From Thermodesulfobacteriota bacterium (GTDB lineage Bacteria; Desulfobacterota; Desulfobacteria; Desulfobacterales; SURF-7), in assembly GCA_049320885.1 (NCBI GenBank), contig JBMORA010000001.1, positions 417,307 through 481,306 of the forward strand: 64,000 nt of DNA, written 5' to 3'. Within the stretch, counting starts at the first letter, position 1, and each line of letters begins with the position of its first letter. Below are positions 16,359-45,552 of this stretch, piece by piece. The translations under genes and the position numbers were made by a program. The notes beneath the pieces are model-generated. The model made no database searches, was not told the origin of the DNA, and was given only the letters and a program-made list of their open reading frames with translations.

Positions 16359-17126
16359 TCAGCTTCTGCGCAGCAACCACCCGTCCGGACAATAGGTCAG
16401 GTTGCGAATGACGTATTCCTCGCCGTAAAGCGCCGCCGGCCTTTGAATGATGAAATTCGGGTTCAGGGCCGCAAACTCCCGGGCGGCGGCGGCCGGGTTG
16501 TCCTCGCGCCAGTGGGCGGCCCCTTCCGGCGTATCGGACAGAATCCGCATCACGCCGTCGGCGGCGACGATATACGAGCCGACGGAGACCAGCCCGGCAT
16601 AGGCATTCAACTCCCGCAGCACATGGGCCCTGGAATGGTCGCTGTCCAGGAAAACAAAGGTCCGCTCGCCCGGCCGGATCAGATCGCGCACCTTTCGGAC
16701 GGTGTCCGGCGCCGCCGAATCCGCCTGGATCAAGGTGATGGCCTCCCCGTATGGGCTTTCAGCCACGGCTTTCCGGACGGATTCCGGAATATGGACATCA
16801 ATGGAAATCACCCGGCCCTTGCCCAGCAGACGGCACAAGGAGGCGAAAAAAATCGCGCTCCCCCCCTGGTTCACCCCGGTTTCCACAATGACATCCGGCT
16901 GAATCCGGAACAGGCTTTCCTGCAGCCGGATCATGTCGTCGGGCAATTGCCAGATCGGGAAGCCTAGCCAGGACAAGGAGCGCCAGTTGGCCGCATTCCA
17001 CTGCTGCTTGATCCACAATCCGGTCATCTTTTCCAGGCCTTCCCTGGAAAACAGGTCGAGCGTTTCAACAACGCCGTCTTCTTCCACGACCATCGAGTTG
17101 GCCGCTGTATCAATACGGATTTTCAT
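16359..17126 (-). CDS. CmcI-family (cephalosporin hydroxylase / rhamnosyl O-methyltransferase-like) protein
   Basis: SWLGFPIWQLPDD, PDVIVETG..QGGS, LDSDH...HVLREL, PDGWL. Start at ATG 17126 (ATGA overlap). Confidence 0.88.
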   Translation of the reverse strand: MKIRIDTAANSMVVEEDGVVETLDLFSREGLEKMTGLWIKQQWNAANWRSLSWLGFPIWQLPDDMIRLQESLFRIQPDVIVETGVNQGGSAIFFASLCRLLGKGRVISIDVHIPESVRKAVAESPYGEAITLIQADSAAPDTVRKVRDLIRPGERTFVFLDSDHSRAHVLRELNAYAGLVSVGSYIVAADGVMRILSDTPEGAAHWREDNPAAAAREFAALNPNFIIQRPAALYGEEYVIRNLTYCPDGWLLRRS

Positions 17127-18484
17127 ACCAGATGAATCCTGATGTCGTTCATGGGCACGCCCATCAGCCCGAAACAGACGGAACTGGAATGTACCCGGAA
17201 AGCCAGGGCCTCGTGCAGCCAGTGGTGCTGGACATGCTCCTGCTGGGTGCCCTCGGCCGCCGAGGCGGCCACCGTGTAGTCCCCCACCGGCATAACCGGC
17301 ATGCGAAAGGAGAAGCTGGCTTGAAATTTCAAGCCGGACGGCACGTGCAGCGGTGAATTCATATGGGCGAGATAGGTATTGTCGGCAAACAGGACCTGAC
17401 CGAGCCTGTCCTGCACCATGAATCCGACAATCGGGTGAAACAGGTCGCAGTTGGCCCGGCACTGAATGACCAGTGTCAGCATTTCCCCCCCCACCACCCA
17501 TGCCAGCTGACGTCCCTCCCCGTCCTGGAGCCGGACGTCCGTCACGACAGCGCCGCCCTTGCCGAACTGGGCCTTGTCCGGTTTAAAGGCGAACAATTCG
17601 ATGTCGTTCCGGTGGGGCGTCGCATTGATGAAGTCCTGCCGCATATCCCGGGGTGGTTCATCCGCTGGGGCAGCTTTGTTATCCCGCACCGCCGGAACAG
17701 CGGCGATGCTCTCTCCCTGGCGTGCCTCATAACACGCCGTCAGATATTTTGCCACGATATCTTTGGGTTCCCCCCGCCCCCGGACAACCCCCTTATCCAG
17801 CCAGAAAGCGGTCCGGCACAGGCCGGTCACGGCGCCGGTATCGTGGCTGACCAGGATGATGGTCCCCTGTTCCATGAAACGCCGCAGAAAACGCATGCAC
17901 TTCTGGACAAAAAACGCATCCCCGACCGCCAGGGCTTCATCGATGACCAGGATATCGGCGTCCACATGGGCCATCACGGCGAACGCCAGCCGGACATACA
18001 TGCCGCTGGAGTAGGTTTTGACCGGCCGTTCGATGAATTCACCGATATCGGCAAAAGCCGCGATATCGTCGAAACGCGCGTCGATCTCCGTTTTCGTGAG
18101 CCCCAGCACGGCCGCGTTCATGTAGACATTTTCCCGGCCGGTGAATTCCGGGTTGAACCCGGAGCCGAGTTCCAGCAGGGCCGCCACTCTGCCGCGAGTC
18201 TCCACCGTTCCGGAAGTGGGCGACAAGGTCCCGCAGATGATCTGCAGCAGGGTCGATTTGCCGGAGCCGTTGCGGCCGATGATGCCCGTCGTTTCGCCGC
18301 GCCGGATTTCGAAAGAGACGTCCCGGAGGGCCCAGAAATCACGATAATACCGGCTTTGCTTCCACCCCGCCATGCGCTGGAGACGGGGTACGACGAACTG
18401 CTTGAGCCGGTCCCGGGGAGTATCGTATATCTGATATCCCTTGCTGAGATTTTCGATGCGGATGGCGATCTGTTCAGATAACAT
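17123..18484 (-). CDS. wzt: Polysaccharide ABC exporter ATP-binding subunit with C-terminal Wzt_C carbohydrate-binding domain
   Basis: GRNGSGKST, YSSGMYVRLAF, IDEALAVGD, plus an extra C-terminal beta-sandwich domain. Confidence 0.93.
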   Translation of the reverse strand: MLSEQIAIRIENLSKGYQIYDTPRDRLKQFVVPRLQRMAGWKQSRYYRDFWALRDVSFEIRRGETTGIIGRNGSGKSTLLQIICGTLSPTSGTVETRGRVAALLELGSGFNPEFTGRENVYMNAAVLGLTKTEIDARFDDIAAFADIGEFIERPVKTYSSGMYVRLAFAVMAHVDADILVIDEALAVGDAFFVQKCMRFLRRFMEQGTIILVSHDTGAVTGLCRTAFWLDKGVVRGRGEPKDIVAKYLTACYEARQGESIAAVPAVRDNKAAPADEPPRDMRQDFINATPHRNDIELFAFKPDKAQFGKGGAVVTDVRLQDGEGRQLAWVVGGEMLTLVIQCRANCDLFHPIVGFMVQDRLGQVLFADNTYLAHMNSPLHVPSGLKFQASFSFRMPVMPVGDYTVAASAAEGTQQEHVQHHWLHEALAFRVHSSSVCFGLMGVPMNDIRIHLV

Positions 18485-19325
18485 CGGCAAACCCCTTGCG
18501 GGTTTTCTGAAACCAGGCGAAACCCAGCCAGGCAACCACCAGGGCCGCGGCGGAATAAACCAGAAGTCCTGGCCAATCCGGCAACCGTCCCCAGACCAGA
18601 ACATCGCGGGACTGTTCGATGATGAACGCCAGGGGATTGGCCATCATCCAGGGACGATAGGCTTCCGGCAAGGCGGTTATGGGGAAAAAAACCGGGGAGA
18701 CGAACAGCAGCACGGCGGTGACGATGCCGATGAACTGACCCACGTCACGGATATACACGCCGAGGGAGGCCAGGCCCCAGGAAACGCCGGCGGAAACCGC
18801 CACCAGGGGCAGCAGGATCAGGGGGAACAGGATGACGGTCCAGTGCAGAAAGCCATTGAACAGAAAAATGGCCATCAGCAGCACCGCCAGGCTGACCAGG
18901 CACTGGAAAAGCGCCGCGGCCACGGACACCACCGGCAGGATTTCCAGGGGGAAAACGACTTTCTTGACATAGTTCGCATTGGCCAGGATGACCCCCGGGG
19001 CCCGGTTGGCGGCTTCCGCCAGCAGGTTGTAAACAATCAGTCCGGCAAACAGCATCACGGCGAACTGGGTTCTGGTCTCCTGTTCACCCATTCCCCAGCG
19101 GGCCTTGAACACCACCGAAAAGACGAAAGTATACACCGCCAGCATGAGCAGGGGATTGGAGAAGGACCAGGCCAGGCCGAGAATCGAGCCCCGATACCGG
19201 CCGATGACCTCGCGCCGGGTCATCTGAAAAATCAGGTCGCGGCTGGTCCACAGGCAGGCCAGCATGGCCTGGATGGATGCGGGATGGGCTCTGTGAGGAT
19301 TCATGGATGTTGCCACCGCCTTCAA
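18474..19325 (-). CDS. wzm: Polysaccharide ABC exporter permease
   Basis: RYRGSILGLAW, YVKKVVFP, SPVFFP, KGFADVI. Start is 19325 (TTG) or 19304. Confidence 0.93.
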   Translation of the reverse strand: MKAVATSMNPHRAHPASIQAMLACLWTSRDLIFQMTRREVIGRYRGSILGLAWSFSNPLLMLAVYTFVFSVVFKARWGMGEQETRTQFAVMLFAGLIVYNLLAEAANRAPGVILANANYVKKVVFPLEILPVVSVAAALFQCLVSLAVLLMAIFLFNGFLHWTVILFPLILLPLVAVSAGVSWGLASLGVYIRDVGQFIGIVTAVLLFVSPVFFPITALPEAYRPWMMANPLAFIIEQSRDVLVWGRLPDWPGLLVYSAAALVVAWLGFAWFQKTRKGFADVI

Positions 19326-22498: not shown

Positions 22499-22966
22499 TT
22501 AAAAGGGCGACCCGGACTTGGGCGGCGCCAAATCCGCCACCCACCTCCCGTCTTCCTGAAGCCAATTTTCCTGAAGGATTGCCCCGGGTATCAGAAAACC
22601 CATCTGCTTGATATCGAACCGGACGCTCACCTTGGCCCTGGTTTTATCCTCTGAGAACGTAATCCCGGCGATTTCGAATTTCTCAATCCGTGAGCGGCAT
22701 TTGGACCGGTTGTCCTCCAGGGTAACCTGCCGGCGGTAGAGAGCTGAAGCGTTTTCGTAAATGACGTCGCAATCCCCGTCCACTTTGGCCTGCCAGACCA
22801 CCGCCACCCGTTCCCGCAAATCCTGTTCGGACACTTTCGGAAACAGATGCGCGCAACCGAGAAAAGCGAAAACCAGCGCCCACGCCGCGATGGCCATCCC
22901 CATCGCAGCAAATCGGGCGCCGATGCCACCAAGCCCGTGATCGGATCTCTTTTTTTCCATCGCCAC
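22499..22966 (-). CDS. Hypothetical lipoprotein (possible NTF2-like fold)
   Basis: Hydrophobic stretch ending FLGC lipobox; C-terminal ENWLQEDGRW; co-oriented behind the UshA-like gene. Confidence 0.65.
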   Translation of the reverse strand: MAMEKKRSDHGLGGIGARFAAMGMAIAAWALVFAFLGCAHLFPKVSEQDLRERVAVVWQAKVDGDCDVIYENASALYRRQVTLEDNRSKCRSRIEKFEIAGITFSEDKTRAKVSVRFDIKQMGFLIPGAILQENWLQEDGRWVADLAPPKSGSPF

Positions 22967-22977: not shown

Positions 22978-23940
22978 TTACCGGTTCCCCGATGTCCTTC
23001 TTTTGGCCAGGTTGCGTTGTGTCTCGAATTCTTTTTCCAGGGCATCAAATTCCGGATCCGATGCCACGGACGGTGTCAATTCCTTTAAAAAGCTTTCCTG
23101 CCGCTCGATTTTCCCGTTCCGGTCCAGCCATATCCGGATGACCCCCACATGTTTCCCGCCCATGCTGGATTTCAGCAGAATCTTGCCATGGACCACCGCC
23201 GGCTCGAAATCATAATAATACTGGTGTCCCACGATGATCACATCGATGCCGTCCACCTCATTCGCCAGTCGCACGCTTTCGTCCCAGCCGGCATGGGACA
23301 GCAGGACAACGAGGCCGGTTTCCTTTTTCAGGGCCGGCAGGACGGCCTTCAGGGATGAAACCATATCCCGCACTTCGATTCCATCCGCACCTGTCCGGGC
23401 CGGGTCCGTGAAACCGGCGGAAACGACCCCCACCACGCCGATCTTGACGCCGTTGACGGTTTTCGTATGGTAGGGTTTCCAGGCGTATTCCTTGCCCACA
23501 AAGGTATTCGAGCCGATGAAACCCGGCTGAATCGAGTCCCGGAAACGCTGCAAGAAAGGCAGGCCATACCCCAGCTCACCGTCCGCGACATTCATGGCGT
23601 CATATCCCAACATCTTCAGGGCTCTTGCGGTAAACTCGGCCCTCAGTTCCGCCGGTTCTTCCTGGCTCCAGAAAAAATCCCCGGCATCCACCAGCAGGAT
23701 GTCGCCGTATTCCTTCCGCAGCTCCGCAACATAGCCGGCCCGCCGGGCCAGCCCGCCAGGGGCGTTCGTTGCTCAGCCAAAGCATTTGATATGCCCCTGG
23801 CCGTCGCTGGTGTAGGCGATCACCACATCCGGCGGGGCGGCCTGTTTGCTTTCCGCGCCCTGGCCCGGGCCCACGGATCCGAGGCCCACCGCCAGAACCA
23901 GAACAACGCTCCATAACCGACAGGAAAAGAAACACCTCAT
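22978..23940 (-). CDS. Exported UshA-like metallophosphoesterase-fold protein with in-frame UGA at 23773-23775 (probable selenoprotein, 320 aa)
   Basis: Track ORFs 23773-23967 and 22978-23691 share a frame and are separated only by TGA. Read-through gives YTSDGQGHIKCFG-U-ATNAPGGLARRA...LLVDAGDFF. Strong RBS and signal peptide at 23940. Confidence 0.85.
23733..23753 (-). promoter_or_regulatory. Candidate bacterial SECIS hairpin
   Basis: mRNA GGCUGGCCC-GGC-GGGCCGGCU stem-loop; G-led apical loop about 29 nt 3' of the UGA. Alternative folds are possible in this GC-rich sequence. Confidence 0.45.
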
Positions 23941-24033: not shown

Positions 24034-26499
24034 TTACCGGTACAGTTCCGCTCCGCTGAGCAACCCGAGGCTCCCGTCACCATAGAGGAAAAGTCCCATG
24101 ATGCCGTTGCCGTCGGCGGTGATCCGCACCCAGGGCAGCTCCGGCAAGCGGGTTTCCGGGAAAACCTCGCCGAGGTTGAAAACGGCCTTGGTAAAAGGCG
24201 CAACGGTCAAAACCACCTCCTCCCCCGGCACCATTTCACCGTTCCGGCCCATGGGAGTCAGGGTCACCGCAACACCCATCGGCCCCGGGTTGTACAGCGC
24301 GACTCCGGTCCACCAATCGCCGTCCCGGGCGATGTGGGGAATGGCCAGTTGATTCACGCCCTGATCCAGGGCCATGAGTTCAAAAGCCGCGCTGCTGACG
24401 GCGGTCTTATAGGTGAAATAACCGGCGACGGGGGTCTGGGCGGTGATCTGCAGGGCTCCCTGGGCCAGCTCCTCCTCCGTCATCGCCGGAAACAGGTCGA
24501 CGATGGACCGGGTTGTTTTTTCATAGGGCATCAACTCCAGCGGAACCGGTTCGCCGCCCTGGCCATTCACCATCCGGCATTCAACGGCATTGACGGCGCC
24601 GCCCGGATTGATCAAGGTCATTTCCGTACGCCAGACGCCGGAAACCGCCACATGGGGAATGATCATCCGGGTATCGGTCCGGGTCAGGGCAAACAGGCTG
24701 TCCGGACCGCCGGAATCGTTTTTGAGCCAGCGGGAAAAGCCGTCCACGCCGGCAGCGGTGTCCGGGACAGAGGTCTGCACGTCGATCCAGCCGTTTTCAA
24801 TGGCTTTGTAAAACGGATTGGCGCTGGGCGAGTACCGCAGGACGGAACCGGCCGGAAGATGGATGCCCGCCTGGCGCTCCGGTATTCCCTGGGCGCTGTA
24901 CAGCAGGCAATTCAACTCCACGGCCTGGGCGAAGCGGTTGACCAGCCCCCAGGTGACGACCTTGCTGGTGGAAAAAAGTCCGGAAGTATCGGGTATCATC
25001 CATCGTCCGGCGCCGGATCCGCCGGGCTGGCCGAAACCGGCCAGGCTTTGCCGGCCGATGCCGTCCAGGGAAATCATCGCCGCCGGGTCGTCGCATAACA
25101 GTTTCAGGGCCTTGATCGAGGCTTTTTCGTGCAGACGCATGGGCAGGCTTTCCGCCAGCCAGACATCCTTTTGCCGGGGGCCGATTTCGTAAGGCCCCTT
25201 GAGGGTGGCCACAGGCCGGGAGGCGCTGTCATAGGCGACGATCTGGACATCGGTGAGCGGGAGATCGAAGGTATTGGTGATGGCGACCCCGTTCCAGGCC
25301 GATCCCTTTTGAAGATCGGGAATCCATTGTTCGTTGGCCTTGGACTGGTCGAAAACGATGCGGTAAATTCCCCCTCCGCCGTAGTTGTCGCGGCGGACGT
25401 TCAAGCGATAGGGTGGATTTTCCGCTGCAAGGGTCAGGGTGGCCGTATCATTGAGTTCCGCCTGCCATACCATCCGGCCGGCCGCATCCAGGAGGTCAAT
25501 CCGGATGCCGTCCTCCAGGGTATCGATCTTCTCGAACCCAAACGCCAGCCGGTCGCCGGAACCGGCGTTGATGGTATAGGCATCCTCGTTCAGCAATATC
25601 AGGTTGTAATTGCCCGGCGTCAACTGCACGGCTCCCGTGTTTTCCAGAAAATCATCCTTGTGCAGGGAAATGGACCGGATCAGCTCATAGTTGAGAAAGG
25701 GATTGGTGGCCTGGGGCGCCAGCGGATAAAATACCGAGCGGGGCGGGCTCCCGGCGCTGGTGCCGGTCCATTCGCCGCCGGTGATTTCATTCCGGGCGTT
25801 GAGATAGAGAAGATAGGTGTAAATCTTTGTCTTGACCACCGTACCCTGGATATCCGGATGCACGTTGTCGTCGGCGTACCAGATCTGGCAACGCACCTCC
25901 TTGCCGGCACTGGTGTTGGTGAGCTGCATGTCATACTGGAAAATGGGGTAAAACCAGGCTTCCGTGGCCGAACCGAGATTGGCCACAAAGGCCCGGCGGT
26001 GAACCTTGATATAGTTCAACAGCCAGGCGTGAAAAATCTCCGGGTTGTACCGCACCGATTCGCTGATGGTCAGGTCGCTGCCATGGCAGGCGGAGAGCAG
26101 GCCTTTTTTGTCCCCCACCCGGAAAATGATATTATTGTAGGAAGAGGGGTAAAAAACGATGTTTTCATAGGCTGCGGCCGCGGCCCAGGCATGGCATTGG
26201 CCGTTCCAGCTTTCCGCGTCCGGGTCGTAATGGTTGGCCAGTTCCCACTGGGTGGTGGCGCCCGGATAGGTTCCGGTGGTCAGCAGCTCGAACTTCTCGG
26301 TGGGCGCCGGATGGCCGAAATTGGCATAGCCGTTGGCCAGGGCGCCGCTTCTGGTGGACCACCAATAGCCGGACCAGGGCCGAAAATAGGTTTCCGCCGC
26401 ATCCGTGCCGGCCAGGGCCTGGAACGGCGGAGCCAACAAAACCGCCCACAACACGGAGGTCATGACAAGGGCGGCTGCATGGAAGGTCTTGGTTTTCAT
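24034..26499 (-). CDS. Secreted protein: GP42/TGase-elicitor-like cysteine enzyme domain, a PPC-like domain and four ~100-aa beta repeats
   Basis: Signal peptide; PWSGYWW, WNGQCHAWAAAA, DKKGLL, NPEIFH, WFYPI, YTYLLYL...ITGGEW occur in GP42-family order; repeats begin IP...W.G....N. Confidence 0.75.
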   Translation of the reverse strand: MKTKTFHAAALVMTSVLWAVLLAPPFQALAGTDAAETYFRPWSGYWWSTRSGALANGYANFGHPAPTEKFELLTTGTYPGATTQWELANHYDPDAESWNGQCHAWAAAAAYENIVFYPSSYNNIIFRVGDKKGLLSACHGSDLTISESVRYNPEIFHAWLLNYIKVHRRAFVANLGSATEAWFYPIFQYDMQLTNTSAGKEVRCQIWYADDNVHPDIQGTVVKTKIYTYLLYLNARNEITGGEWTGTSAGSPPRSVFYPLAPQATNPFLNYELIRSISLHKDDFLENTGAVQLTPGNYNLILLNEDAYTINAGSGDRLAFGFEKIDTLEDGIRIDLLDAAGRMVWQAELNDTATLTLAAENPPYRLNVRRDNYGGGGIYRIVFDQSKANEQWIPDLQKGSAWNGVAITNTFDLPLTDVQIVAYDSASRPVATLKGPYEIGPRQKDVWLAESLPMRLHEKASIKALKLLCDDPAAMISLDGIGRQSLAGFGQPGGSGAGRWMIPDTSGLFSTSKVVTWGLVNRFAQAVELNCLLYSAQGIPERQAGIHLPAGSVLRYSPSANPFYKAIENGWIDVQTSVPDTAAGVDGFSRWLKNDSGGPDSLFALTRTDTRMIIPHVAVSGVWRTEMTLINPGGAVNAVECRMVNGQGGEPVPLELMPYEKTTRSIVDLFPAMTEEELAQGALQITAQTPVAGYFTYKTAVSSAAFELMALDQGVNQLAIPHIARDGDWWTGVALYNPGPMGVAVTLTPMGRNGEMVPGEEVVLTVAPFTKAVFNLGEVFPETRLPELPWVRITADGNGIMGLFLYGDGSLGLLSGAELYR

Positions 26500-26522
26500 G
26501 GGTAAGAAAATCGTTTCGGAGA

Positions 26523-27164
26523 TCAATGGGTTTCCCGCCAGGATCGACGATCGCCGGTGTCTTCGTAGAGCCACCACCGGTCGCCCTCGGCCCATAGCTG
26601 ACGGACGCGGATGGATTTTCCATAATGAACGGAAACCAGTTTCAGGACACGGCCCGTGTGGACATGGGCCTGGTCCGGCGGAATCATTTCCCGGGCCACG
26701 GCTTCCGCCAGGGTGATGGGGCGGGTCTCTTTGTCGAGGTGATAGGCAAACCCGGTGTCGCCGACCAGTTTGCGACTGACGGCTTGGGTCTGGCCGCTGT
26801 CTCCGGGGTTCAGATCGTCCAGGGGAAACGGATAGCCCCAGGAAAGGGTGATGGTTTCTTCCGCCCGGGTGTCATGGGTGTAGATGCCGGACAGCCGGTC
26901 TTCGATTCTCATCAGGCGGCCGGTAGCCGCATATTGGAGCATCAGGTCGGGCTGGGCCTGATCGTTGCGGAAAACGGCGTAGGAACCGGATTCCCGGGGA
27001 ACAAGGCGCCATTTGATTTCATTGTCCCAGGCCTGGGTAACGGGATTGAGGTAGCGGCTGCGGATGACGATCCCGGCCGGCTCCGCCGGAGCCGTGGCCG
27101 CGAACAGTGCAGCGAGTGCCGATGTCACGGCGAAAACGATGCTAATGATCTTAAATGGTTTCAT
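26523..27164 (-). CDS. Exported hypothetical protein
   Basis: Clear signal peptide; fills the gap between co-oriented genes; no recognised family. Alternative GTG start at 27170. Confidence 0.7.
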   Translation of the reverse strand: MKPFKIISIVFAVTSALAALFAATAPAEPAGIVIRSRYLNPVTQAWDNEIKWRLVPRESGSYAVFRNDQAQPDLMLQYAATGRLMRIEDRLSGIYTHDTRAEETITLSWGYPFPLDDLNPGDSGQTQAVSRKLVGDTGFAYHLDKETRPITLAEAVAREMIPPDQAHVHTGRVLKLVSVHYGKSIRVRQLWAEGDRWWLYEDTGDRRSWRETH

Positions 27165-27194
27165 TTTCACAATTCAAAACCTGCCGCCCAAAAT

Positions 27195-27231
27195 AAGATG
27201 AAGAAGGAATCAGGGATTCCTTCTTCATCTT
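27195..27231 (-). terminator. Perfect 17-bp inverted repeat, probable terminator or 3' stabiliser of the S-layer candidate mRNA
   Basis: AAGATGAAGAAGGAATC-AGG-GATTCCTTCTTCATCTT, followed by ATTTT on the minus strand. Confidence 0.8.
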
Positions 27232-27288
27232 TACAGCTGCTGTTTCAAGCGCCCGCGTTCAAGCCGGACGTTTCAAACAGGTTGGTGG

Positions 27289-29127
27289 TTAGTTGTTCCA
27301 CTGGCTGGCGTTGGTGTAGGCCGTGTAACCGGTGCTGTCGGACCCGTTGCCGGTCATGCCGAAACCGCCGGCGCTGGCGAACTGGGTCACCACCACGATG
27401 TGGCAGGACGAGTCGCCCAAGGTGCCGGTGCCGGCAGTCTGGGTCAGGTTGGCCAGCAGCGTGGAAGCGCCGTATACCGCCAGTCCGCCCGCCGCGATGG
27501 AAGGCGTGGTGTAGGTGCCGACGTCGCCGTCAGACTCGTATACCGTCACCGCGGCGGTGCCGGCGGCTGAAGACGGGTTGCCGATGGTCATGCCATACCA
27601 CCATCCTTGGGAACCATCCAGCGCAACCGCATAGGGATAGTACAGGGTGGTGGTGGGTACGGAAGCCGCACAGGTATCGACGAATTCGGCGATGATGCGG
27701 TCGTCGGTGAAAATCAGGCCGCAGGGCAGTCTGTACAGTTCCACGGTGACGGTGACCTGGTCGCCGTTGTCGAACTGGGCCGGGTCATAGACGACCAGCG
27801 GGACATCCACGCGGATCACGTTATCGGTGTCGATGCCGGTGAAGGCAGCAGCGGTGGTGAATTCCACCACGCGTTCGCCTGCGGGAATGGCCTGGCAGTC
27901 AGCACCGCTGGCATAGCCGGTAACCGCAACGCCGGTTTCCGTGGCCGGGGTGCCCAGGGCCACAACCGCCGTGCCGGGATCCGAGCAGGGATCTTCGCTC
28001 GGCAGGAAGGAAGCAGCGGTCGGAGCAGCGGCAAAATAAGCGCCGTCGCCGGAGATCGTCAACGTCAAACGGTATTCGTCGTTCGGGTTGAAGAAGGTGC
28101 CGCTCTGGTTTTCGATCAGCAGGGTGTTGCCGCCGAAGGTGGTGGAGGTGCAGTAGGAAGCTGCCGTCTCATAGTTGAAGGTACAGGAAGAGCTCTGGCC
28201 GCCGGCCGGTTCCACATAACCGTACAGATCACCCTTGCAGGCGTCCAGAACGATGGTGGTGGCCGCGATCAGATGGGCAACCTGGGGGTTGGAGGGGTTG
28301 AAGGTCAGGAAGTTGTTGCCATCCACACCGCCGGAGTTGATGCTCACGTTGATGGTGGTGCCGCTGTACTGGGCGCTGTTCACCGTCACGCAGATGTTGT
28401 TGTCCCAGTCGGCGTTGTACTGCAGCACGTCCGCGGCAGCGCCGGGACCGGCAATGCCGTCGCCGTAGATGCCGTCGCCGTCATAGTCCTTGACCGCCAG
28501 CTGGGCGCCGTTGGTGGGCACGGTGACGCCGTCATGGGGGTTGTTGTCGAACAGTTTGATCTGGAACTCGGTGCCGGGCTCGACGGTGAGGGAAGAAGAA
28601 CCGTCATAGTTGGCGGCATTGTTGATGCCCAGGGCGTTGTCTTCGTCGTAGACATCGATGCGGATCCGGCTGGAGCCGCTGGTGCCGCGCACGCGGAAAA
28701 CGATTTCCTGACCGGCTACGGTGATGCCGGCGTTGGTGCCGTCACCCACGGTGCCGACATCCTTGATGGCCCACAGGTAATTGTCAACCACCGCGCCGGT
28801 GTCGCCGATATCGGTGGTGGCGAAGCCGGAGTTGCCGGCGGGCAGGGGCACGGTGTCGGCGCCCAAGGCCGCGCCCAGGACCAGGAAGTCAAAAGACTGG
28901 CAGAGGGTGACGCCCAGGGGCATGTCCATGGTGACCCAGTCGCCGTCACGCAGCACGGTGCCGCCGTCGAAAATCAGGGTGACGTTACCGGTTTTTTCAC
29001 AGGCATTCGCCGCAGCGGTGATGCCTTCCGAGTTGGTTTTCACTTCGACCTGTTGCGCGGCCATCGCGGACATGGTGATTCCCATGACCAGCATCAACGC
29101 CGCCATGACTACAGTAAATTTTCTCAT
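27289..29127 (-). CDS. Secreted acidic Thr/Gly/Ala-rich protein, candidate S-layer or major surface protein (612 aa)
   Basis: GGAGG RBS, Sec signal (AMA-AQ), strongly skewed codon use (ACC, GGC, AAC, TTC, TAC), very few Lys/Arg, DYDGDG Ca-type motif, long leader and strong downstream hairpin. The ORF is secure; the function is inferred. Confidence 0.65.
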   Translation of the reverse strand: MRKFTVVMAALMLVMGITMSAMAAQQVEVKTNSEGITAAANACEKTGNVTLIFDGGTVLRDGDWVTMDMPLGVTLCQSFDFLVLGAALGADTVPLPAGNSGFATTDIGDTGAVVDNYLWAIKDVGTVGDGTNAGITVAGQEIVFRVRGTSGSSRIRIDVYDEDNALGINNAANYDGSSSLTVEPGTEFQIKLFDNNPHDGVTVPTNGAQLAVKDYDGDGIYGDGIAGPGAAADVLQYNADWDNNICVTVNSAQYSGTTINVSINSGGVDGNNFLTFNPSNPQVAHLIAATTIVLDACKGDLYGYVEPAGGQSSSCTFNYETAASYCTSTTFGGNTLLIENQSGTFFNPNDEYRLTLTISGDGAYFAAAPTAASFLPSEDPCSDPGTAVVALGTPATETGVAVTGYASGADCQAIPAGERVVEFTTAAAFTGIDTDNVIRVDVPLVVYDPAQFDNGDQVTVTVELYRLPCGLIFTDDRIIAEFVDTCAASVPTTTLYYPYAVALDGSQGWWYGMTIGNPSSAAGTAAVTVYESDGDVGTYTTPSIAAGGLAVYGASTLLANLTQTAGTGTLGDSSCHIVVVTQFASAGGFGMTGNGSDSTGYTAYTNASQWNN

Positions 29128-29410: not shown

Positions 29411-30862
29411 TCAGTTGTCCGTGGAAACCGGTAAACCGATTTTCCAGGCGTTCCAAACGCTGCCTGCTCCCCCATCCGTCCAATTCTCGTTGTTCAGCAC
29501 CCCCGGCCAGATCACCAGCCGCGTGCCTCCCGGATCCAGCGGCAGTTCCAGCCCGCCGACCGCATCCGTGGCCAGCTCCAGCTTGACATTGGGATAATCG
29601 ACAAACAGCGGCAATCCCGGGATTCCTTCGCCCGGATCGAACAGGTTGTTGCCGTTTCCATCCGCGTAGGCCACGCCCATGACCCGTGATGTCCCGGCCG
29701 CCGCCGGCGTCGCGAAGACAACCGTCACCAGATACAGATGGCGGAATTCCTCCCCCTCCCGCGGTGCCACCGGGCGCAAGCCGATGCCCATTTCCGTCAG
29801 GGCCGGATGGAACAACTGCCGGGCCTCGCTCCCGCTTTCGCTGAAGGCCCGAAACAGCAATTGCTCGAACACCGCCTCACTCACCTCCGCCAGGGGCGTT
29901 TCCGGTTCCAGGGCGAGGATATCGATGATCTGGGCGAACTCCCGCGGTTCATACCCGGCTGCCTTCAGCCTGTCCGGAGTCGACCGGCCGTCATATCCGT
30001 TGGGATCGAAATACCGGTGAGCCGCCATTTCCTCGGTGTGGGCCTGCGCGGCCCAGCCCAAGGTTTCATCGGCGGACAATGCCTGCATGCCGCTGGTCAG
30101 CGCGGCGCGCCATTCGGGTCGGGTTGTCAGAATGGTTTCCGGATTCAAGCCCATCGCGGCAGCCACCTCTACCGGTTTGGTTCTTGCCTGGTTGATCAGA
30201 TGCGCCAGAATTGTCTCCGCTTCCTGCAGGGAGCCGACCTGCGATGCACCTGAAACGCCAAAATCGCATACGGCAAGATACACATTGTAGGCAGTTTTCC
30301 CAATCGTCAATGATCCGGTCTGGACGCCGATACCGATATGGGTAAAATGGGGGTTGAGCAACTTACGCTCCACGTCGGCGCCGGTTTGCAGCTCATCTAA
30401 AAACATGTTTTTAAACAAAATGTCAACTGCTTTTTGCGGTTCGATGAAATTTTTGAAGGCCACCAGCCCCAGGCTTTCACCGGTCATAAGCGGCATAAAC
30501 CCCTGAAACCGTATTCGATCCTCATGGGTTAAGCCGTCCGGGGAAACGGTGCTGTAATAATTCCGGGCCAGCATATCCCCGGTATGTTCGCGGGCCGCCG
30601 CCGAAAGCGATTCCTGCGCCTGCAGGGGCATGAGCCCGCTGTTCAGGATATCACCGAATTCCGGCAGGGCTGCGAGCAGCGCCTTCGGGTCTTTCCCCAG
30701 GGAGGCCGCCGTCGCCAACGGATTGGAGCGGGCCGCATTGATCCGGTTCATCAGCATGGCTTCCATATTCCTGGACTGATCATATGGTTCATCCGCCCGG
30801 GCCACGCCCGCCACCGGCAAGGCAAACAGAAAAAGCAATATGAAGCGGAGGCAATATGTCAT
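29411..30862 (-). CDS. Secreted protein with two CAP (SCP) domains and a C-terminal SdrD-B-like domain
   Basis: Signal peptide; two copies of IN.AR..P...L..AA..H...M....Y...G.G; C-terminal GVAYADGNGNNLFDPGEGIPG. Confidence 0.8.
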   Translation of the reverse strand: MTYCLRFILLFLFALPVAGVARADEPYDQSRNMEAMLMNRINAARSNPLATAASLGKDPKALLAALPEFGDILNSGLMPLQAQESLSAAAREHTGDMLARNYYSTVSPDGLTHEDRIRFQGFMPLMTGESLGLVAFKNFIEPQKAVDILFKNMFLDELQTGADVERKLLNPHFTHIGIGVQTGSLTIGKTAYNVYLAVCDFGVSGASQVGSLQEAETILAHLINQARTKPVEVAAAMGLNPETILTTRPEWRAALTSGMQALSADETLGWAAQAHTEEMAAHRYFDPNGYDGRSTPDRLKAAGYEPREFAQIIDILALEPETPLAEVSEAVFEQLLFRAFSESGSEARQLFHPALTEMGIGLRPVAPREGEEFRHLYLVTVVFATPAAAGTSRVMGVAYADGNGNNLFDPGEGIPGLPLFVDYPNVKLELATDAVGGLELPLDPGGTRLVIWPGVLNNENWTDGGAGSVWNAWKIGLPVSTDN

Positions 30863-31214: not shown

Positions 31215-33320
31215 TTACCACTTGTATCGCAACATCACCTGGACGGTCCGGGGCGGCCCCTCGATGACCCGATACTGTCCCGGCTGGGTGTATTCCCGGT
31301 CCAACAGATTCCGAACCGACAGGGTCAACTCCATGCTCGGAATCACGAAACGGTGGACCGTGGCATTCCAGTCCAACAGCCAGGCCTCCTTGCAGGTGAT
31401 GACCGCTTCCTCCCGGGGATGGATCAGGTCCCGGGCAGAGATATACCGCAATATGCCCGTGGTGCTGAACCGCTGGACGGGTCGCCAGGTACCGATCAGA
31501 TTGAACAATCGGTCAGGCCCCAGATCGTAGGGATAAACCAGTTCGACATAGTGTTTTTCGACGCTGCCGTCCGGCCGGATGAAATCATAATCGTTGTACA
31601 GGTATTTCTCATCCGGCCCGCTGTTGCTCAGCACCGTGAAATTGAGTTCCACATCCAGGGTGTCATGGGGATGCAGGCGGGTTTCGAATTCAAGCCCGTT
31701 GATTGTCTGCGTGTTGGGACTGCTCAAGCCCGCGTAGGGATCCTCCATCACATGATTGGCGATACGGTTGTTGAAGCCGCAGAGCGACATATCCAAAACC
31801 ATGGAGGGCTTCCAGGCGACCTGGGCGCTGAGATTGGTGATTTTCTCCGGCTCGAGTTCGTCTTCTTCCCGCAGCTGGCTCGCATAGGGCGTGCGGAAAG
31901 CCGTTCCGTGAAACAGCTTGACCACCCACTGCCGGTTCGGCGACCAGACCAGCCCCGTATTGTAGCTGACGGCGTCATCGTATTCATCGTGGGCATCGTT
32001 CCGAAGCCCGAGCAGTATATCCACCGGCCCCATTTTGTGGACGTACTGACCGAAAACAGACACCAGGCGTGTATGATAATCCACCTGATCGAGTTCGGGC
32101 AGCAGGTTTTCGTTTTCCGGCCCCAAATAGTCCGGCAGATAGCCGTCCCAGATGAGAGCGTCATCGACCCGCCGGTCCCGGTAGGAAGCCCCGGCGGTCA
32201 GCAACCCCCGTCCCGCCATCAGGGTGTGATCGAAAATCAGTTCCGTGTAGAAACTGTTTTCATTCTGCTCGATGGTGCGATCGATGATATCGTATTCCGG
32301 ATTCAGCATACTGTAGCTGGCGGTGAAACGAAGCGCGGAACGAAAGTCGAGACGCTGTTTGCTTTCCAGTTTCAGAAAACCGGAAGGTACTCTTTCCGTT
32401 TCGCGCCAGGTATAGTCCCCTCCCTGTTCCGCCAGGGCATAGGGATGCCGGTAATCGGATATCCGGCCGGAAAGGGAAAAGCGTTCGCCGTGGGAAACCC
32501 GGCCGGCAGCCTCCACATACTGGGAATCTCCGACGCTTGCCGTACCGTATCGGTTCTCGGGAGGAACCGCCTCTTCCAGATCGCCCCAGAATCGGACGAC
32601 ATTGACATCGCCGTCCTCCTCCTGCTGCTGATGGTGGGCGCTGACCGAAAAAAATGCATCCCAGTTTCCCGAAAGGAATCCGGCGTTGGCATAGGCGCCC
32701 ACCGGATGACCGGGCTCCCCGAAATAGCCGCCCACCTCGCCGCCCTGCACATCCCGGCCGGTGAGGGGGACAATATTGACCACCCCGGCAAAAGCGTCCG
32801 GACCCCACAGGACCGAACCCGGTCCGCTGACGATTTCGATCCGCTTCACCGATTCGAGCGACATCTCCCTGTCCAGAAATTGCAGCGATTTGGATACCTC
32901 CGAACCCATCGGCACCGTATCGTATAAACAAAGGATGGAATTGGAGACGCCGCGCATATAGGCTTGCGTGCCGCTTTCGCGGCCGGCCATGTGGAATCCA
33001 GGCACCAGCGCCAAGGCTTCACCGAGGGTGGAAACTCCGCGTTCACGGATCTGTTCCCTTGTGACCACGTGGGCCACAGCCGGCACCTGCCAGGCGCTTT
33101 CCTCCCGGCGCGTGGCAATGGACAAAACGTCCAGCGACTCTCCAACAAACATGAGCAACGTATCGCTTTCGGCCGCTCCATCCGGCTTCACTTCGCCTTC
33201 AGCCCCGGCTCCCGCTCCCGGCCGGATCAATACGACCATCAGACAGCAGCACAGGAAAAGATTGCCCACCCGATGAAACAGCCTTGCGATTCCGCGCAGG
33301 ATAAAATCGTTTTTTTTCAT
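31215..33320 (-). CDS. TonB-dependent receptor
   Basis: Plug motifs VVTREQI, LALVPG, RIEIVSGPGSVLWG; barrel GTAFRTP, LEPEK, SVRNLLD; C-terminal YKW. Start uncertain. Confidence 0.9.
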   Translation of the reverse strand: MKKNDFILRGIARLFHRVGNLFLCCCLMVVLIRPGAGAGAEGEVKPDGAAESDTLLMFVGESLDVLSIATRREESAWQVPAVAHVVTREQIRERGVSTLGEALALVPGFHMAGRESGTQAYMRGVSNSILCLYDTVPMGSEVSKSLQFLDREMSLESVKRIEIVSGPGSVLWGPDAFAGVVNIVPLTGRDVQGGEVGGYFGEPGHPVGAYANAGFLSGNWDAFFSVSAHHQQQEEDGDVNVVRFWGDLEEAVPPENRYGTASVGDSQYVEAAGRVSHGERFSLSGRISDYRHPYALAEQGGDYTWRETERVPSGFLKLESKQRLDFRSALRFTASYSMLNPEYDIIDRTIEQNENSFYTELIFDHTLMAGRGLLTAGASYRDRRVDDALIWDGYLPDYLGPENENLLPELDQVDYHTRLVSVFGQYVHKMGPVDILLGLRNDAHDEYDDAVSYNTGLVWSPNRQWVVKLFHGTAFRTPYASQLREEDELEPEKITNLSAQVAWKPSMVLDMSLCGFNNRIANHVMEDPYAGLSSPNTQTINGLEFETRLHPHDTLDVELNFTVLSNSGPDEKYLYNDYDFIRPDGSVEKHYVELVYPYDLGPDRLFNLIGTWRPVQRFSTTGILRYISARDLIHPREEAVITCKEAWLLDWNATVHRFVIPSMELTLSVRNLLDREYTQPGQYRVIEGPPRTVQVMLRYKW

Positions 33321-33387
33321 AACCGATTTGATTCCCATCCAAAACGACCCGCATCCGTCATTCGCGATTGCCGATCCGTCATATCCC

Positions 33388-34731
33388 TCATCCAAGATTT
33401 TTCAGGAACACCCGGAGCTTTGCCCGGGTCAGCCCCAGCAATTTGGCCGCCTGGGTCTGGTTGTTGCCGGTCATCCGCAGGGCCTGATGGACCATTTCCT
33501 TGTTGAAATCCTCCAGACAAATCCCCCCCGGTGGCAGCTGGAAGTTCCGGGAACCCGGGTCGGAAGCACCAGCATTGTTCAAAAAAGAAAGCGTTTCGGC
33601 CGTAATGGCTTCCCGGTCCGATCCGATGATCATGGCCCGCTCCATGGCATTGGCGAGTTCCCGGACATTACCCGGCCACCGGTAGGCCGTCAGCATGCGC
33701 CCCGCGCCGTCGGTCAATTCCATGGCCCGGCCTTCTCCGAGGAGATTGAGAAAATGCTGGCACAGGGGCAGAATATCCTCCGTCCGTTCCCGCAGGGGAG
33801 GCAGTTCAATGGGCACCACATTGATGCGGTAAAACAAGTCCTGCCGAAAACGGCCGTTCCGGACCGATTCCATCAGGTTTTGATTGGTGGCGCATATGAA
33901 ACGTGCATCCACGGGTATTTCCTCGTTTCCTCCCACGCGCCGGACGGTTTTTTCCTGGAGGGTCCGCAGCAGCTTGGCCTGGGCTTCCAGCGGCAGGTCG
34001 CCGATCTCGTCCATCAACAGAGTGCCCTGGGAGGCGAATTCAAATTTCCCCTTGGTTCTTCGTTCCGCCCCCGTGAAAGCGCCTTTTTCATATCCGAACA
34101 ATTCCGATTCCACCAAGGAAGCCGGGATGGCCGCGCAGTTGATGGGCACGAAACGACCGTTTCTCCGTCCGCTCTGGCTGTGTATGTATCGGGCCAACAA
34201 TTCCTTGCCGGTCCCGGACTCGCCTTGAATCATCACCACCGAGTCGCTGCGGGCCACCTTGGCCGCCAGTTCCATCACGGACTGCATCGCCTTGGAGCGA
34301 TAGACGATGTCGCCGGCGCCGGCCACCAGGGAAAGCTCCCGCTTCAGTTCCTTGTTTTCCTGTATCACTCTGGAAAAGTTCAAGGTTCTTTCAATAGTGA
34401 GCTGGATGCGGTCCTCCTCGAACGGTTTGGTGATATAATCGGAGGCCCCCATGCGCATGGATTCCACCGCCGAGTCCACGGTGGCGAACGCAGTGATGAA
34501 AACGAAGGGACACGGCAGGTCTTCCGCCTTGACCTTCTGCAGCAGTTCGACGCCGCTCATGCGGGGCATCTTGATATCGCTGATCACCATGTCATAAGGT
34601 GTTTCCTTGATCTTCGCATATGCCTCCAACCCGTCCGAGGCCTGTTCCGTTGTATGACCGTTTCGCTGCAGCAACAGGGCCAGGAGATGACGCATTTTTT
34701 CTTCATCATCGACGATCAGTATGTGAGCCAT
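33388..34731 (-). CDS. Sigma54-dependent response regulator (NtrC/AtoC family)
   Basis: REC domain (VDDE, SDIKMP), GESGTGKE, GAFTGA, WPGNVREL, C-terminal Fis-type HTH. Confidence 0.95.
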   Translation of the reverse strand: MAHILIVDDEEKMRHLLALLLQRNGHTTEQASDGLEAYAKIKETPYDMVISDIKMPRMSGVELLQKVKAEDLPCPFVFITAFATVDSAVESMRMGASDYITKPFEEDRIQLTIERTLNFSRVIQENKELKRELSLVAGAGDIVYRSKAMQSVMELAAKVARSDSVVMIQGESGTGKELLARYIHSQSGRRNGRFVPINCAAIPASLVESELFGYEKGAFTGAERRTKGKFEFASQGTLLMDEIGDLPLEAQAKLLRTLQEKTVRRVGGNEEIPVDARFICATNQNLMESVRNGRFRQDLFYRINVVPIELPPLRERTEDILPLCQHFLNLLGEGRAMELTDGAGRMLTAYRWPGNVRELANAMERAMIIGSDREAITAETLSFLNNAGASDPGSRNFQLPPGGICLEDFNKEMVHQALRMTGNNQTQAAKLLGLTRAKLRVFLKNLG

Positions 34732-34827
34732 TGTCTTCACTCCTTCCAATCGGATATCTTTCCCCCCGCCTTCCCCCCTCTGCGTCGACCGTGGGCCGCA
34801 ACCGGCTTCTTGCCGCATGGTGCATGA

Positions 34828-36249
34828 CTATCTTCCCTGCTGCAGGGGAATGTCCACCGTGAAAAGCGCCCCACCCGAATCGGCATCCTCCACCAGGATG
34901 AACCCTCCATGGGATTTGAAAACCTGGGAGGCGAACGCCAGCCCCAGGCCCGTGCCTTTGGCTCGTGTTGTGAAGAACGGTTCAAAGATTTTTCCCTTGT
35001 CATCCGGACGAATGCCACCGCCGTTGTCCTCGATCTGCACCCGCCAGCGGTCGAAATCGACTTCCGCCTTGATCCGCACATATCCGTTCTCCCCCGCCGC
35101 CTGGCAGGCATTTTCGATGATGTTGCCGAAAGCCCGGACCATCAAATCACGGTCCGCATGACGGATCGCCGGCCGTTCCGGCAGATCGAGATTCAACTGC
35201 AGGGCGGACTGATGGTGCAGCATTTCAAAACGCCGGAATACATCATCCAGCATCTGATTGAGATCAACGGTCCGGAAAACCGGTTTCGTCGGTCTGGCGA
35301 ACTGCAGAAAGGCCTCGATCATGCTGTTAAGGCGGCGGATTTCATCCTCGATATAACCCACCAGGGTCTGCTCGCTGCTCAGGTTGTAATCGCGCTTGAT
35401 CATATCCAGGGAAGTTTTGATAATGGCCAGCGGATTTTTCACCTCATGGGCGATCATCAGGGAAAATTTTCCCATTTCCGCCAGGGATTTCTGCTTCATC
35501 ATTTCCCGGTTCACCCGGGCAAGATCCTCCTGGCTTTCCTTCAAGGAATCCAGCATGGCGTTAAACGATTTCGCCAGCGCCCTGGTTTCCGGCAATTTAC
35601 CGGGCCGGGCTCTCAATTCGAAGTCCCCCCGGCCGATGTGCATGGCGGTGGCGGTCAGTTGTTTCAATTCGGAACCGATGGGCCGGGACACGAAATAAAA
35701 CACCAGGCCGGCAATCAGTGCCAGACCCAGGGACATCCAGATGAATCTGCGCGCGATATCGGCCATCAGCAGATCGATTCCATGGGTGCTGAAGTGGATG
35801 CGCACCTTGCCGATATGGTCCACGATCGCGGTCCGCACGGGTTCGAAAGGGGTACGCGCCACGACTTTCCCGCCGGAAAATACGATATTCTCGTCGCTCG
35901 CCCGCTTGAAAACCACCGGCGTCTCCACCAGCGACAGGGGGCCTTCGGCGGATCGGGACAAATCCACCAGCGTATTGTTGTGATTATCCAGAATCAGCAC
36001 CCGCGCCACATCCTTTTCCCCCAGCAGGTTATGAGCCAGATTTTTCAGTCCCTCCTTGTCATTGATCAGGACCCCCACTTCCGAATTCAGGGCCAGGTAC
36101 CGGGCCAGAAACGCTATCCGGTCCTCGAAGCGCTCATGCATGAAACGGCTGGTGATCCGCACCCCCACGATGCCGAAAATGGCCGTGGAAGCGCCGATCA
36201 GCACAAAAGCCGCCAGCAGAAAGCGCGTATGGATACCGGGACTTTTCAC
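34828..36249 (-). CDS. Sensor histidine kinase (2 TM, HAMP, HisKA, HATPase)
   Basis: AHEVKNPL, NIIENA, DNGGG, FEPFFTT, GTGLGL. Confidence 0.95.
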   Translation of the reverse strand: MKSPGIHTRFLLAAFVLIGASTAIFGIVGVRITSRFMHERFEDRIAFLARYLALNSEVGVLINDKEGLKNLAHNLLGEKDVARVLILDNHNNTLVDLSRSAEGPLSLVETPVVFKRASDENIVFSGGKVVARTPFEPVRTAIVDHIGKVRIHFSTHGIDLLMADIARRFIWMSLGLALIAGLVFYFVSRPIGSELKQLTATAMHIGRGDFELRARPGKLPETRALAKSFNAMLDSLKESQEDLARVNREMMKQKSLAEMGKFSLMIAHEVKNPLAIIKTSLDMIKRDYNLSSEQTLVGYIEDEIRRLNSMIEAFLQFARPTKPVFRTVDLNQMLDDVFRRFEMLHHQSALQLNLDLPERPAIRHADRDLMVRAFGNIIENACQAAGENGYVRIKAEVDFDRWRVQIEDNGGGIRPDDKGKIFEPFFTTRAKGTGLGLAFASQVFKSHGGFILVEDADSGGALFTVDIPLQQGR

Positions 36250-39607: not shown

Positions 39608-39610
39608 AAG

Positions 39611-40333
39611 CTACTGTTTCTTCCGTTTCATCATACCGAACGGCGTACTGATCGTTTCATACTGCTCGTCCGTTCCCGAATCCTTTTTGCGCCGGCTGGC
39701 GATGCCGGCATCCTTCTTCGGTTCCGGCTTGGGTTTCTTTTCCGGCGGTGTCGCCACGACAACGGGTTTTGCCGGTTGACGGGCGGCCGCCGGTTGCCGG
39801 ATCTTGCTCTGTTCGTACAGTCCCACGCGAAACTTCTTTCGGCCTTCGTCCGTGAAGACGACTCCATCCGCGAAGATCTGCTCAACCCGCAACTGTCCCA
39901 CCCGATCCCCCCGCCTGACCCACAGGGAATGATCGGCGGCGGATTTCGCCTCGGGATTGTTGATCAGGGCCGCTTCGTAACCATCCAGAATCACGACGCC
40001 GAAAAGCAGGATGTCCCGTCCCTCGATCCGGGGCTTGTCTTCTTCCGGCAGGGCTTCGATCCCGGGTTCCGGGGCCTGGTATTCCTCCCGCTCCGGTGAA
40101 AACAGGTTTTTCCCCACCACATCCTGAAAGGCGCTCTGGGGCTGCGGGCGTTCCCCGGGAAAGCCGCCGGCGGGAACGGACGGCGTCTCCCTTTCCAGGG
40201 CGCGGTTTTCCGAAGGCCGCTCCGGCTGGCGGATGGGCAAGGGATCGTGCCGCCATACCTGAACGGTCTTGTGGATAAAAAAAACACTCAGAACGGCCAG
40301 GCCGATATTGATGTAGGTGATCTTGGAAATCAT
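39611..40333 (-). CDS. T2SS GspC-like assembly protein
   Basis: N-terminal TM, KNLFSPER, LFGVV...ALI...GDRVG HR-like domain; position immediately before gspD. Confidence 0.7.
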   Translation of the reverse strand: MISKITYINIGLAVLSVFFIHKTVQVWRHDPLPIRQPERPSENRALERETPSVPAGGFPGERPQPQSAFQDVVGKNLFSPEREEYQAPEPGIEALPEEDKPRIEGRDILLFGVVILDGYEAALINNPEAKSAADHSLWVRRGDRVGQLRVEQIFADGVVFTDEGRKKFRVGLYEQSKIRQPAAARQPAKPVVVATPPEKKPKPEPKKDAGIASRRKKDSGTDEQYETISTPFGMMKRKKQ

Positions 40334-40354
40334 GCGCGATTTTTCATGCCCCGG

Positions 40355-40945: not shown

Positions 40946-40972
40946 GGCCGCCACTATCTCCGAATTCAATTT

Positions 40973-42373: not shown

Positions 42374-42415
42374 GGGAATTCTGCTTCCCGGTCCGTATTT
42401 CCTGGTTCACGCTCC

Positions 42416-43468: not shown

Positions 43469-43487
43469 GATGTTTCGCCGATGGTTC

Positions 43488-45111: not shown

Positions 45112-45112
45112 G

Positions 45113-45541: not shown

Positions 45542-45552
45542 TCTCGCTTCCC

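Follow-up and report, generated by a model that had tools for sequence, protein, structure and literature searches.

The locus described here raises the question of why a secreted enzyme should carry four copies of the domain in which a nearby surface protein ends. Both proteins are encoded in a 64,000-nucleotide stretch of a Thermodesulfobacteriota genome (GenBank assembly GCA_049320885.1, contig JBMORA010000001.1, positions 417,307 to 481,306), hereafter the window. The enzyme, P0001, joins a GP42-like catalytic domain to four ASRAH repeats, and P0002, a predicted surface-layer (S-layer) protein, bears one ASRAH domain at its C-terminus. Taken as a whole, the locus is on balance, if only just, probably one that encodes an S-layer cross-linked by the enzyme, with an anchor that mimics the lattice. 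S-layers are normally non-covalent lattices, and the anchor modules that passenger proteins share with the layer have, to our knowledge, been described chiefly in Gram-positive bacteria. The present locus points to an enzyme-made covalent S-layer together with a passenger anchor that copies a lattice node. The features on which the argument draws are as follows.

24034..26499, minus strand: the 821-residue protein P0001, a secreted cysteine enzyme of the GP42 fold with four ASRAH repeats
25654..26409, minus strand: GP42-like catalytic domain of P0001, residues 31-282 (PF16683, 3tw5)
25336..25653, minus strand: jelly-roll domain of the PPC, collagen-binding or GOLD type, residues 283-388 (VIA)
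25018..25335, minus strand: ASRAH repeat 1, from residue 392 (hhalign, hidden Markov model [HMM])
24676..25005, minus strand: ASRAH repeat 2, from residue 501 (hhalign)
24358..24669, minus strand: ASRAH repeat 3, from residue 613 (VIA match to 1nc7)
24037..24351, minus strand: ASRAH repeat 4, from residue 719, the copy nearest to the S-protein domain
27289..29127, minus strand: the 612-residue surface protein P0002, a Slr4-like predicted S-layer protein with two immunoglobulin (Ig)/CnaA-like domains and one C-terminal ASRAH domain
27292..27657, minus strand: the single ASRAH domain of P0002, a predicted four-fold node (VIA)
28234..28236, minus strand: Lys298 of P0002, candidate amine acceptor (28/29 in alignment A2)
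28195..28197, minus strand: Gln311 of P0002, candidate acyl donor, in a loop (306-313) seen in the model

An earlier note on this DNA had proposed that P0001 ends in four copies of the P0002 C-terminal domain, and the motifs that it quoted are all found in the letters, YYPYAV lying at residue 496 of P0002. Single-sequence comparison supports this in part: repeat 3 resembles repeat 4 (z 14.7) and repeat 4 resembles the P0002 C-terminus (z 4.3, 3/1000 shuffles), but repeats 1 and 2 match that C-terminus at chance level (z -0.3 and 0.0). Family profiles built from 22 and 29 homologs bear out all four copies. With hhalign, repeats 1, 2 and 3 matched repeat 4 at 98%, 93% and 98%, and repeat 4 matched the P0002 C-terminus at 74% (E 2.9e-5). 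A profile made from the enzyme repeats only matches S-protein C-termini (up to E 5.8e-13), and one made from the S-protein C-termini only matches the cassette repeats over their full length (E 8.2e-13), so each group finds the other and the homology link is free of circularity. Across 40 related loci (the locus scan retained 80 of 179 relatives, the best ones, whose titles almost all read Desulfobacterota or deltaproteobacteria, and many of the loci are short), mean scores were 48 for the S protein against repeat 4, 53 for repeat 3 against repeat 4, and 27 +/- 5 for shuffles.

Structural comparison identifies the shared domain. By VIA, repeat 3 aligns with TM1070 (1nc7) at Z 13.9 (root-mean-square deviation [rmsd] 2.2, 102 residues) and with ASRT (2ii7) at Z 11.9; the P0002 C-terminus gives Z 8.4 with 1nc7 and Z 8.1 with 2ii7 (residues 490-606 and 490-593, respectively), values near the tool's 'common' range and yet the best two matches for that segment. 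The joint profile A4 finds 2ii7 (E 0.0035) and 1nc7 (E 0.046), and its consensus, P-x(7)-W-x-T-G-x(4)-N, holds the ASRAH signature residues, a conserved Trp at strand 1 and an Asn ending strand 2 (N27, nearly invariant in alignment A3). The repeats and the P0002 C-terminal domain share the ASRAH fold of TM1070 and ASRT; the earlier note had named a difference in fold as grounds for rejecting its proposal, and on this point the comparison favours it. The available passages of the paper that describes this superfamily describe stand-alone ASRAH proteins as tetramers and other families as dyads or tetrads; the families listed there are solo intracellular, Chloroflexi amidase-fused or actinobacterial lipoprotein ones, and S-layers are not mentioned (PMC2739507). 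A supplement to it (2,805 characters, perhaps not the full architecture table) contains no mention of Desulf, Syntroph, S-layer or transglutaminase.

As a module, the four-copy cassette is general: it occurs on many unrelated cargoes and is not special to P0001. The domain profile matched 23,809 cluster representatives (50% identity), many without a Pfam name for the domain, so that one annotation would cover a large unnamed family. On rescoring, each of the 150 best carriers showed four contiguous copies, no more and no fewer, under a ranking by total score that hides one- and two-copy proteins and would raise longer arrays, none of which was seen. Gaps between copies span 6-10 residues (5th-95th percentile), the cassette is C-terminal in 97 carriers, N-terminal in 35 and internal in 18, and most carriers have signal-like N-termini. 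A GP42-like domain occurs in only 6 of the 150; among the first 60, cargoes assigned by Pfam include subtilase, trypsin, serpin, rhodanese, phosphodiesterase, CAP, PKD, beta-helix, NHL and LRR domains, among others. The genomes G084, G116 and G207 each encode several repeat proteins, some of them two-copy. Within the window's own genome (G000), only 3 of 45,327 six-frame open reading frames (ORFs) score clearly, and the repeat HMM found one further tetrad protein. This is an orphan 935-residue ORF on another contig (G000:C31:44111-46915, L001:10112-12916) with two S-protein N-terminal domains, a middle that appears FN3-like by eye, and an ASRAH tetrad; it is likely a minor component of the layer. 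Two other loci encode secreted proteins made solely of two ASRAH domains (L087:2062-2790 and L088:2297-3076), which could dimerise into cargo-less plugs.

The catalytic domain of P0001 had also been assigned to the GP42 type from the letters, and both family and fold agree. P0001 scores 46.9 bits on PF16683 (TGase_elicitor; gathering cut-off 25). Its AlphaFold2 model (predicted local distance difference test [pLDDT] 86.9, predicted template modelling score 0.80) matches GP42 (3tw5) with a Foldseek E of 1.9e-11 and a VIA Z of 24.5 (rmsd 2.4, 249 residues aligned, 22% identity). The codon of Cys102 (TGC, 26194-26196, minus strand) is as previously reported, and among 79 GP42-like domains (that of P0001 plus 78 from related loci, four of which lack repeats) C102, W98, G100, K132 and W182 are each present in 79, H157 in 76 and P185 in 75. 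The domain is very likely that of a cysteine enzyme, whose reaction is not readable from GP42 alone. At the N-terminus a hydrophobic helix is taken as the signal peptide, and the likely start is ATG 26499, the ORF start at 26595 being less likely. Between the enzyme domain and the four repeats, the two parts already recognised, lies a jelly roll that had been overlooked (VIA Z 11-13 to 7rrm, 3jqw and 5sv5), possibly a substrate-binding spacer. Four GP42-like domains without repeats come from outside Desulfobacterota (L077-L080; Zipacnadia, Thermoplasmata, Ozemobacter), and two of the four carry a fused DUF4384 or PPC domain.

The residues around the Cys are another matter. The catalytic residues of GP42 are Cys290, His291 and Asp328. 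GP42 is described as having an unusual CH motif whose partner is either an Asp from a nearby helix or a strand-2 Asn, and as belonging to the papain-like superfamily (PMC10318531, available passages). P0001 does contain the CHAW motif that the earlier note called intact, but its His, H103, is found in only 16 of the 79 domains. The position aligned to the GP42 Asp is Gly140 in P0001 and Asp in 27/79, with His and Asp together in 2/79, or in 15/79 if Asp is allowed at 140-142. As far as this alignment can tell, the GP42 Cys-His-Asp triad is not a family-wide trait. An Asp at 140-142 accompanies the His in 15 of those 16 domains, so a shifted triad may survive in P0001 itself, in which Asp142 could substitute for the GP42 Asp.

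P0002 is predicted to be a square-lattice S-layer protein, in keeping with its earlier designation as an S-layer candidate. It has a signal-like N-terminus, as judged from sequence, no Pfam hit, and an all-beta model of three domains (pLDDT 83.2); its mature form contains only 6 Lys in 588 residues. By Atlas features it stands at 0.95 with clusters in which 10-16% of members are Slr4 (PF19526), and by Atlas structure a 152-residue Slr4-named model fits residues 408-607 with a template modelling (TM) score of 0.68, while Acidobacteriota proteins of 610-675 residues reach TM 0.47-0.49. Slr4 forms a p4 lattice and has a type II secretion system (T2SS) cluster upstream (PMC7821379, in part). Given this resemblance and the same T2SS arrangement, we infer that P0002 works like Slr4, without filing it as PF19526. 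Comparison with solved S-layers gave no clear match, the best Foldseek and VIA rows being Ig/CnaA adhesin and pilin domains; this likeness also raises the possibility of an autocatalytic isopeptide such as pilins form. The available part of a recent S-layer survey treats Acidobacteriota S-layers as ambiguous and mentions beta-helix types for Desulfobacterota (bioRxiv 2024.05.28.596244). Some loci (L012, L013, L017 and others) encode short S forms of about 400 residues that lack most of the N-terminal domain; short and long forms alternate on the enzyme tree, which indicates repeated loss or gene exchange. Two tandem S-protein genes lie upstream of a single enzyme gene in L044 (5100-8985), and L066 has two S-like ORFs; such duplicates are possibly a source of layer variation.

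Cross-linking, proposed earlier, gains new indirect support because a Lys/Gln pair is conserved in the S protein. From 58 aligned S ORFs, two frameshifted pieces and six without the anchor Cys were dropped, leaving 50 for scoring. A Gln lies at most 9 residues before Cys315 in 46 of these (expected 10.3), at an offset that floats between 1 and 7, and no other Gln window in residues 290-605 scores as well (0.91 against 0.29 elsewhere); with a looser anchor the Gln is found in 53/56. Among the 27 long forms, as assigned by a crude signal-peptide rule, a Lys occurs 7-26 residues upstream in all 27 (expected 8.5). Six-residue windows at 298 (Lys) and 308 (Gln) are each filled in 27/27, the next best reaching 17/27, and the Lys-Gln spacing is 12-16 in 24/27. 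A conserved Lys-Gln pair in a Lys-poor protein is, at the level of sequence, as would be expected of a cross-linking substrate. A protein search for distant S homologs without the enzyme returned close relatives only.

Enzyme and S protein also travel together. Of the 56 loci that extend 2 kb or more upstream of the enzyme, 52 have an S-like ORF there; three more emerge with a broader profile (55/56), and the remaining locus, L074, ends 2.2 kb upstream. The repeat was found in 15 of 251 genomes drawn from the phylum, and among the 14 besides the window's own, the five with the enzyme are the same five with the S protein (PF16683 searching under-counts, having missed G207, which direct query recovered). 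The other nine have neither, two of them resembling chance hits; one, G048 (100% complete, 70 contigs), encodes a four-copy protein with no S protein or enzyme found.

From these observations a mechanism can be proposed. P0002 would be exported by the adjacent T2SS and form a square (p4) layer, its ASRAH domains meeting as tetramers at one four-fold axis. The tandem tetrad of P0001 likely mimics the S-protein tetramer in one chain, so that the enzyme would likely sit in the lattice; the docking or anchoring role suggested for the shared domain is supported to this extent. Other four-copy proteins would occupy such nodes as well, making the cassette a general display anchor. Cys102 would form a thioester with Gln311 and transfer the acyl group to the epsilon-amine of Lys298 in a neighbouring subunit; in short forms without the Lys, the acyl group of Gln311 might pass to the mature N-terminal amine. 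We propose that finishing the layer is the reason why this enzyme, alone among the cargoes, has stayed in the S-layer operon.

Several observations weigh against this reading. First, only 2/32 relatives match Pfam Slr4, at 18.5 and 15.9 bits, under the cut-off of 25 and on the ASRAH segment. Second, the rarity of H103, together with a Pep-13 Asn position that is Ser, Asn, Tyr or Phe across the family (it aligns with Phe183 in P0001), means that chemistry is not transferable from GP42. Third, the cassette is not always accompanied by a detectable layer, as 9 of the 14 genomes showed no S protein, and the repeats are hardly nearer to the S domain of their own genome than to those of others (only repeat 1 is, p 0.003 in four tests). 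Fourth, the Lys is present in 12 of the 22 short forms and missing in 10. Nine of these 10 fall in one enzyme-tree clade, where the mature N-terminus lies near the would-be Lys site, so that rescue by the alpha-amine amounts to one or two events. L058 fits neither scheme, and L061 and L062 have lost the Gln while keeping an intact Cys enzyme. Finally, other polar residues are strongly kept (N517 27/27, N243 25/27, E531 24/27), so that K298 and Q311 could be structural, and the Lys and Gln windows were chosen after the alignment had been inspected. Since the relatives are also non-independent, the pair counts as support and not as proof.

The other features of the locus are listed below.

17123..19325, minus strand: wzt/wzm-type ABC glycan exporter heading a glycosyltransferase cluster (named from translations)
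22499..22966, minus strand: 155-residue predicted lipoprotein (in 45/80 related loci)
22978..23940, minus strand: UshA-like gene with an in-frame TGA, C-F-G-stop (in 31/80)
26523..27164, minus strand: 213-residue secreted protein P0003, without a known family, its gene lying between those of the S protein and the enzyme (alignment A5)
29411..30862, minus strand: double-CAP-domain secreted protein upstream of the S gene (PF00188)
31215..37241, minus strand: TonB-dependent receptor, sigma-54 response regulator, histidine kinase and ABC-type binding protein (regulator and kinase named from translations)
37253..48364, minus strand: T2SS cluster, GspD to GspE (named from translations)

The enzyme gene is the second gene after the S gene, and all three genes lie on the minus strand; the surface protein had been called neighbouring, and it is nearby but not adjacent, since P0003 intervenes. 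P0003 has a tblastn match in 36/80 loci, no match in Pfam or the PDB, and a C-terminus of the form Q-x-W-x(4)-W-W-x-Y-E; it is a candidate assembly chaperone or T2SS accessory. The CAP gene recurs in 43/80 loci. The T2SS cluster is likely dedicated to the layer; Gsp genes lie within 10 kb in 7/80 loci, and further GspD/GspE paralogs occur elsewhere in the genome. The genes between the T2SS and the S gene are kept in 17-27 of 80 loci (TonB receptor 27/80). In some related loci the lipoprotein gene is placed between the S gene and the enzyme gene. With its TGA read as selenocysteine, the UshA-like gene becomes a single ORF of about 320 residues with a signal-like start; it matches NF041198, 'UshA-like (seleno)protein', below cut-off, and the genome has tRNA-SeC calls. 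At the low-GC end of the window, the ORF at 62610-63575 (minus strand) is presumably a REP-associated (Y1) transposase, which it resembles. A promoter and terminator scan at the locus gave nothing usable, and the codon adaptation of the S gene (rank 341 of 3,255 crude gene calls) is uninformative. RNA-library contigs cover the S gene, from runs with small shares (0.05-0.15), and in 4 RNA runs (3 studies) contigs lie on the S gene with hardly any on the enzyme gene; because contigs cannot rank genes, these runs are not used as expression evidence.

Among the alternatives, the one that survives best is that the ligand of the cassette and of the P0002 ASRAH domain is a surface glycan, the wzm/wzt product, much as for CWB2 and SLH modules, with the enzyme held under or beside the layer. 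We regard this as a real though tentative possibility, and anchoring to glycan is compatible with cross-linking, the two roles not being exclusive. ASRAH domains are predicted to bind sugar in a cleft to which the dimer interface contributes (PMC2739507, available passages), wzm is within reach in 23 of the 80 loci and wzt in 26, and four-copy proteins occur in genomes where no S protein was found. There is also a precedent in which three CWB2 repeats make one closed glycan-binding unit (PMC5842191, in part). However, the ligand-contacting His/Cys signature of ASRT is missing from the A3 and A4 consensus, and the cassette-rich G084, G116 and G207 all have the S protein.

A second alternative concerns the reaction and not the anchor. 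The enzyme might be a papain-fold protease like Cwp84 whose role is to cut or remodel the S protein, either in maturation or to open the lattice during growth, a reading that we consider unlikely. The papain-like placement of the GP42 family (PMC10318531) and the example of Cwp84, which shares its anchor domain with SlpA and cleaves it (PMC5842191, available passages of both), fit this reading, as do the non-conserved His/Asp arrangement and the difference between long and short S forms, whose N-terminal domain ends just before K298. But a protease leaves the conserved Lys-Gln pair of a Lys-poor substrate unexplained, the sole solved relative is a transglutaminase, and the enzyme is still kept beside short S forms without the N-terminal domain. 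We find it just as improbable that the acyl group of Gln311 passes to a non-protein amine (amino sugar, ethanolamine or polyamine) or to water, so that the layer is anchored or modified. A glycan export cluster is adjacent and the Gln is kept more widely than the Lys (53/56, against a Lys missing from 10/22 short forms), yet the Lys is present in 27/27 long forms at a near-constant spacing from the Gln. Last, the idea in the earlier note that the shared domain is a T2SS sorting signal is very improbable: the T2SS cluster of the locus and the signal-like N-termini of most carriers would suit it, but a fixed count of four with free placement (97/35/18 of 150) suits a structural ring, the other secreted genes of the locus lack the domain, and so few ORFs of the genome (3/45,327) score for it.

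We return, then, to the cross-linked layer. Each of its components has been described before, namely the GP42 fold, ASRAH tetrads, Slr4 and, for Gram-positive layers, shared anchors. A literature search that omits most subscription journals found no work joining a GP42 fold, ASRAH tetrads and a Slr4-like layer, and the combination is absent from the passages available of PMC11094555, PMC10765051, PMC12175726, PMC9879208 and bioRxiv 2025.06.27.661923; the supplementary tables of the S-layer survey (bioRxiv 2024.05.28.596244) may bear on its novelty. The fullest version of the proposal, a covalently stitched square S-layer in a lineage of sulfate-reducer relatives, with ASRAH nodes, Gln311-Lys298 links and dozens of unrelated enzymes and adhesins plugged in, is speculative, and we would put it forward only with reserve. 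If true, it would give bacterial GP42 homologs a native substrate, for which two candidate residues (Q311 and K298) are named here, and diderm S-layers a passenger system like SLH or CWB2 that operates through lattice mimicry. It would also indicate Slr4-like layers in Acidobacteriota and other phyla with uncertain S-layers, and the four-domain plug would be a simple surface-display tool.

Several known systems share features with the locus. Phytophthora sojae GP42 (PF16683, PDB 3TW5) shares with P0001 the fold, a W-x-G-x-C motif that holds the catalytic Cys, and the Trp and Pro of the Pep-13 segment. The P0001 family differs in conserving neither the His that follows the Cys nor the Asp/Asn partners, and P0001 is bacterial, encoded in an S-layer locus and fused to a jelly roll and an ASRAH tetrad. 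With the ASRAH superfamily (ASRT 2II7, TM1070 1NC7, PF07100; DUF5719 PF18986) the shared domain has in common the fold, the Trp and Asn, and occurrence in one, two or four copies, whereas here a single copy ends a predicted S-layer protein and the tetrad bears many cargo types. Slr4 of Pseudoalteromonas tunicata (PF19526) resembles P0002 in size, signal peptide and upstream T2SS, and, over the C-terminal region, in language-model features, predicted structure and weak Pfam hits; P0002 nevertheless falls below the Pfam cut-off, and Slr4 was characterised in marine Gammaproteobacteria. Its band runs at 57 kDa, and the available passages of its description mention neither transglutaminase nor cross-link (PMC7821379).

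Two further parallels come from Gram-positive bacteria. In the SlpA/Cwp84/CWB2 system of Clostridioides difficile, a papain-superfamily enzyme is likewise encoded in the S-layer locus, and a fixed-number repeat anchor is shared between enzyme and layer protein and borne by many cargo proteins. The CWB2 anchor, however, has an unrelated fold (a toprim trimer binding PSII), Cwp84 cleaves, and the three repeats of SlpA lie in one chain, whereas P0002 bears one copy and sets of four are confined to the passengers; Pfam found neither a C1A protease domain nor CWB2 repeats in P0001. The spore-coat Tgl of Bacillus (PF20085) is, like GP42, papain-like, and joins Gln to Lys in a protein envelope layer (PMC10318531, in part). 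Tgl belongs to a different family, acts in a spore coat and not in an S-layer, and has no shared anchor domain, but for the reaction proposed here it is, by analogy, the nearest functional precedent.

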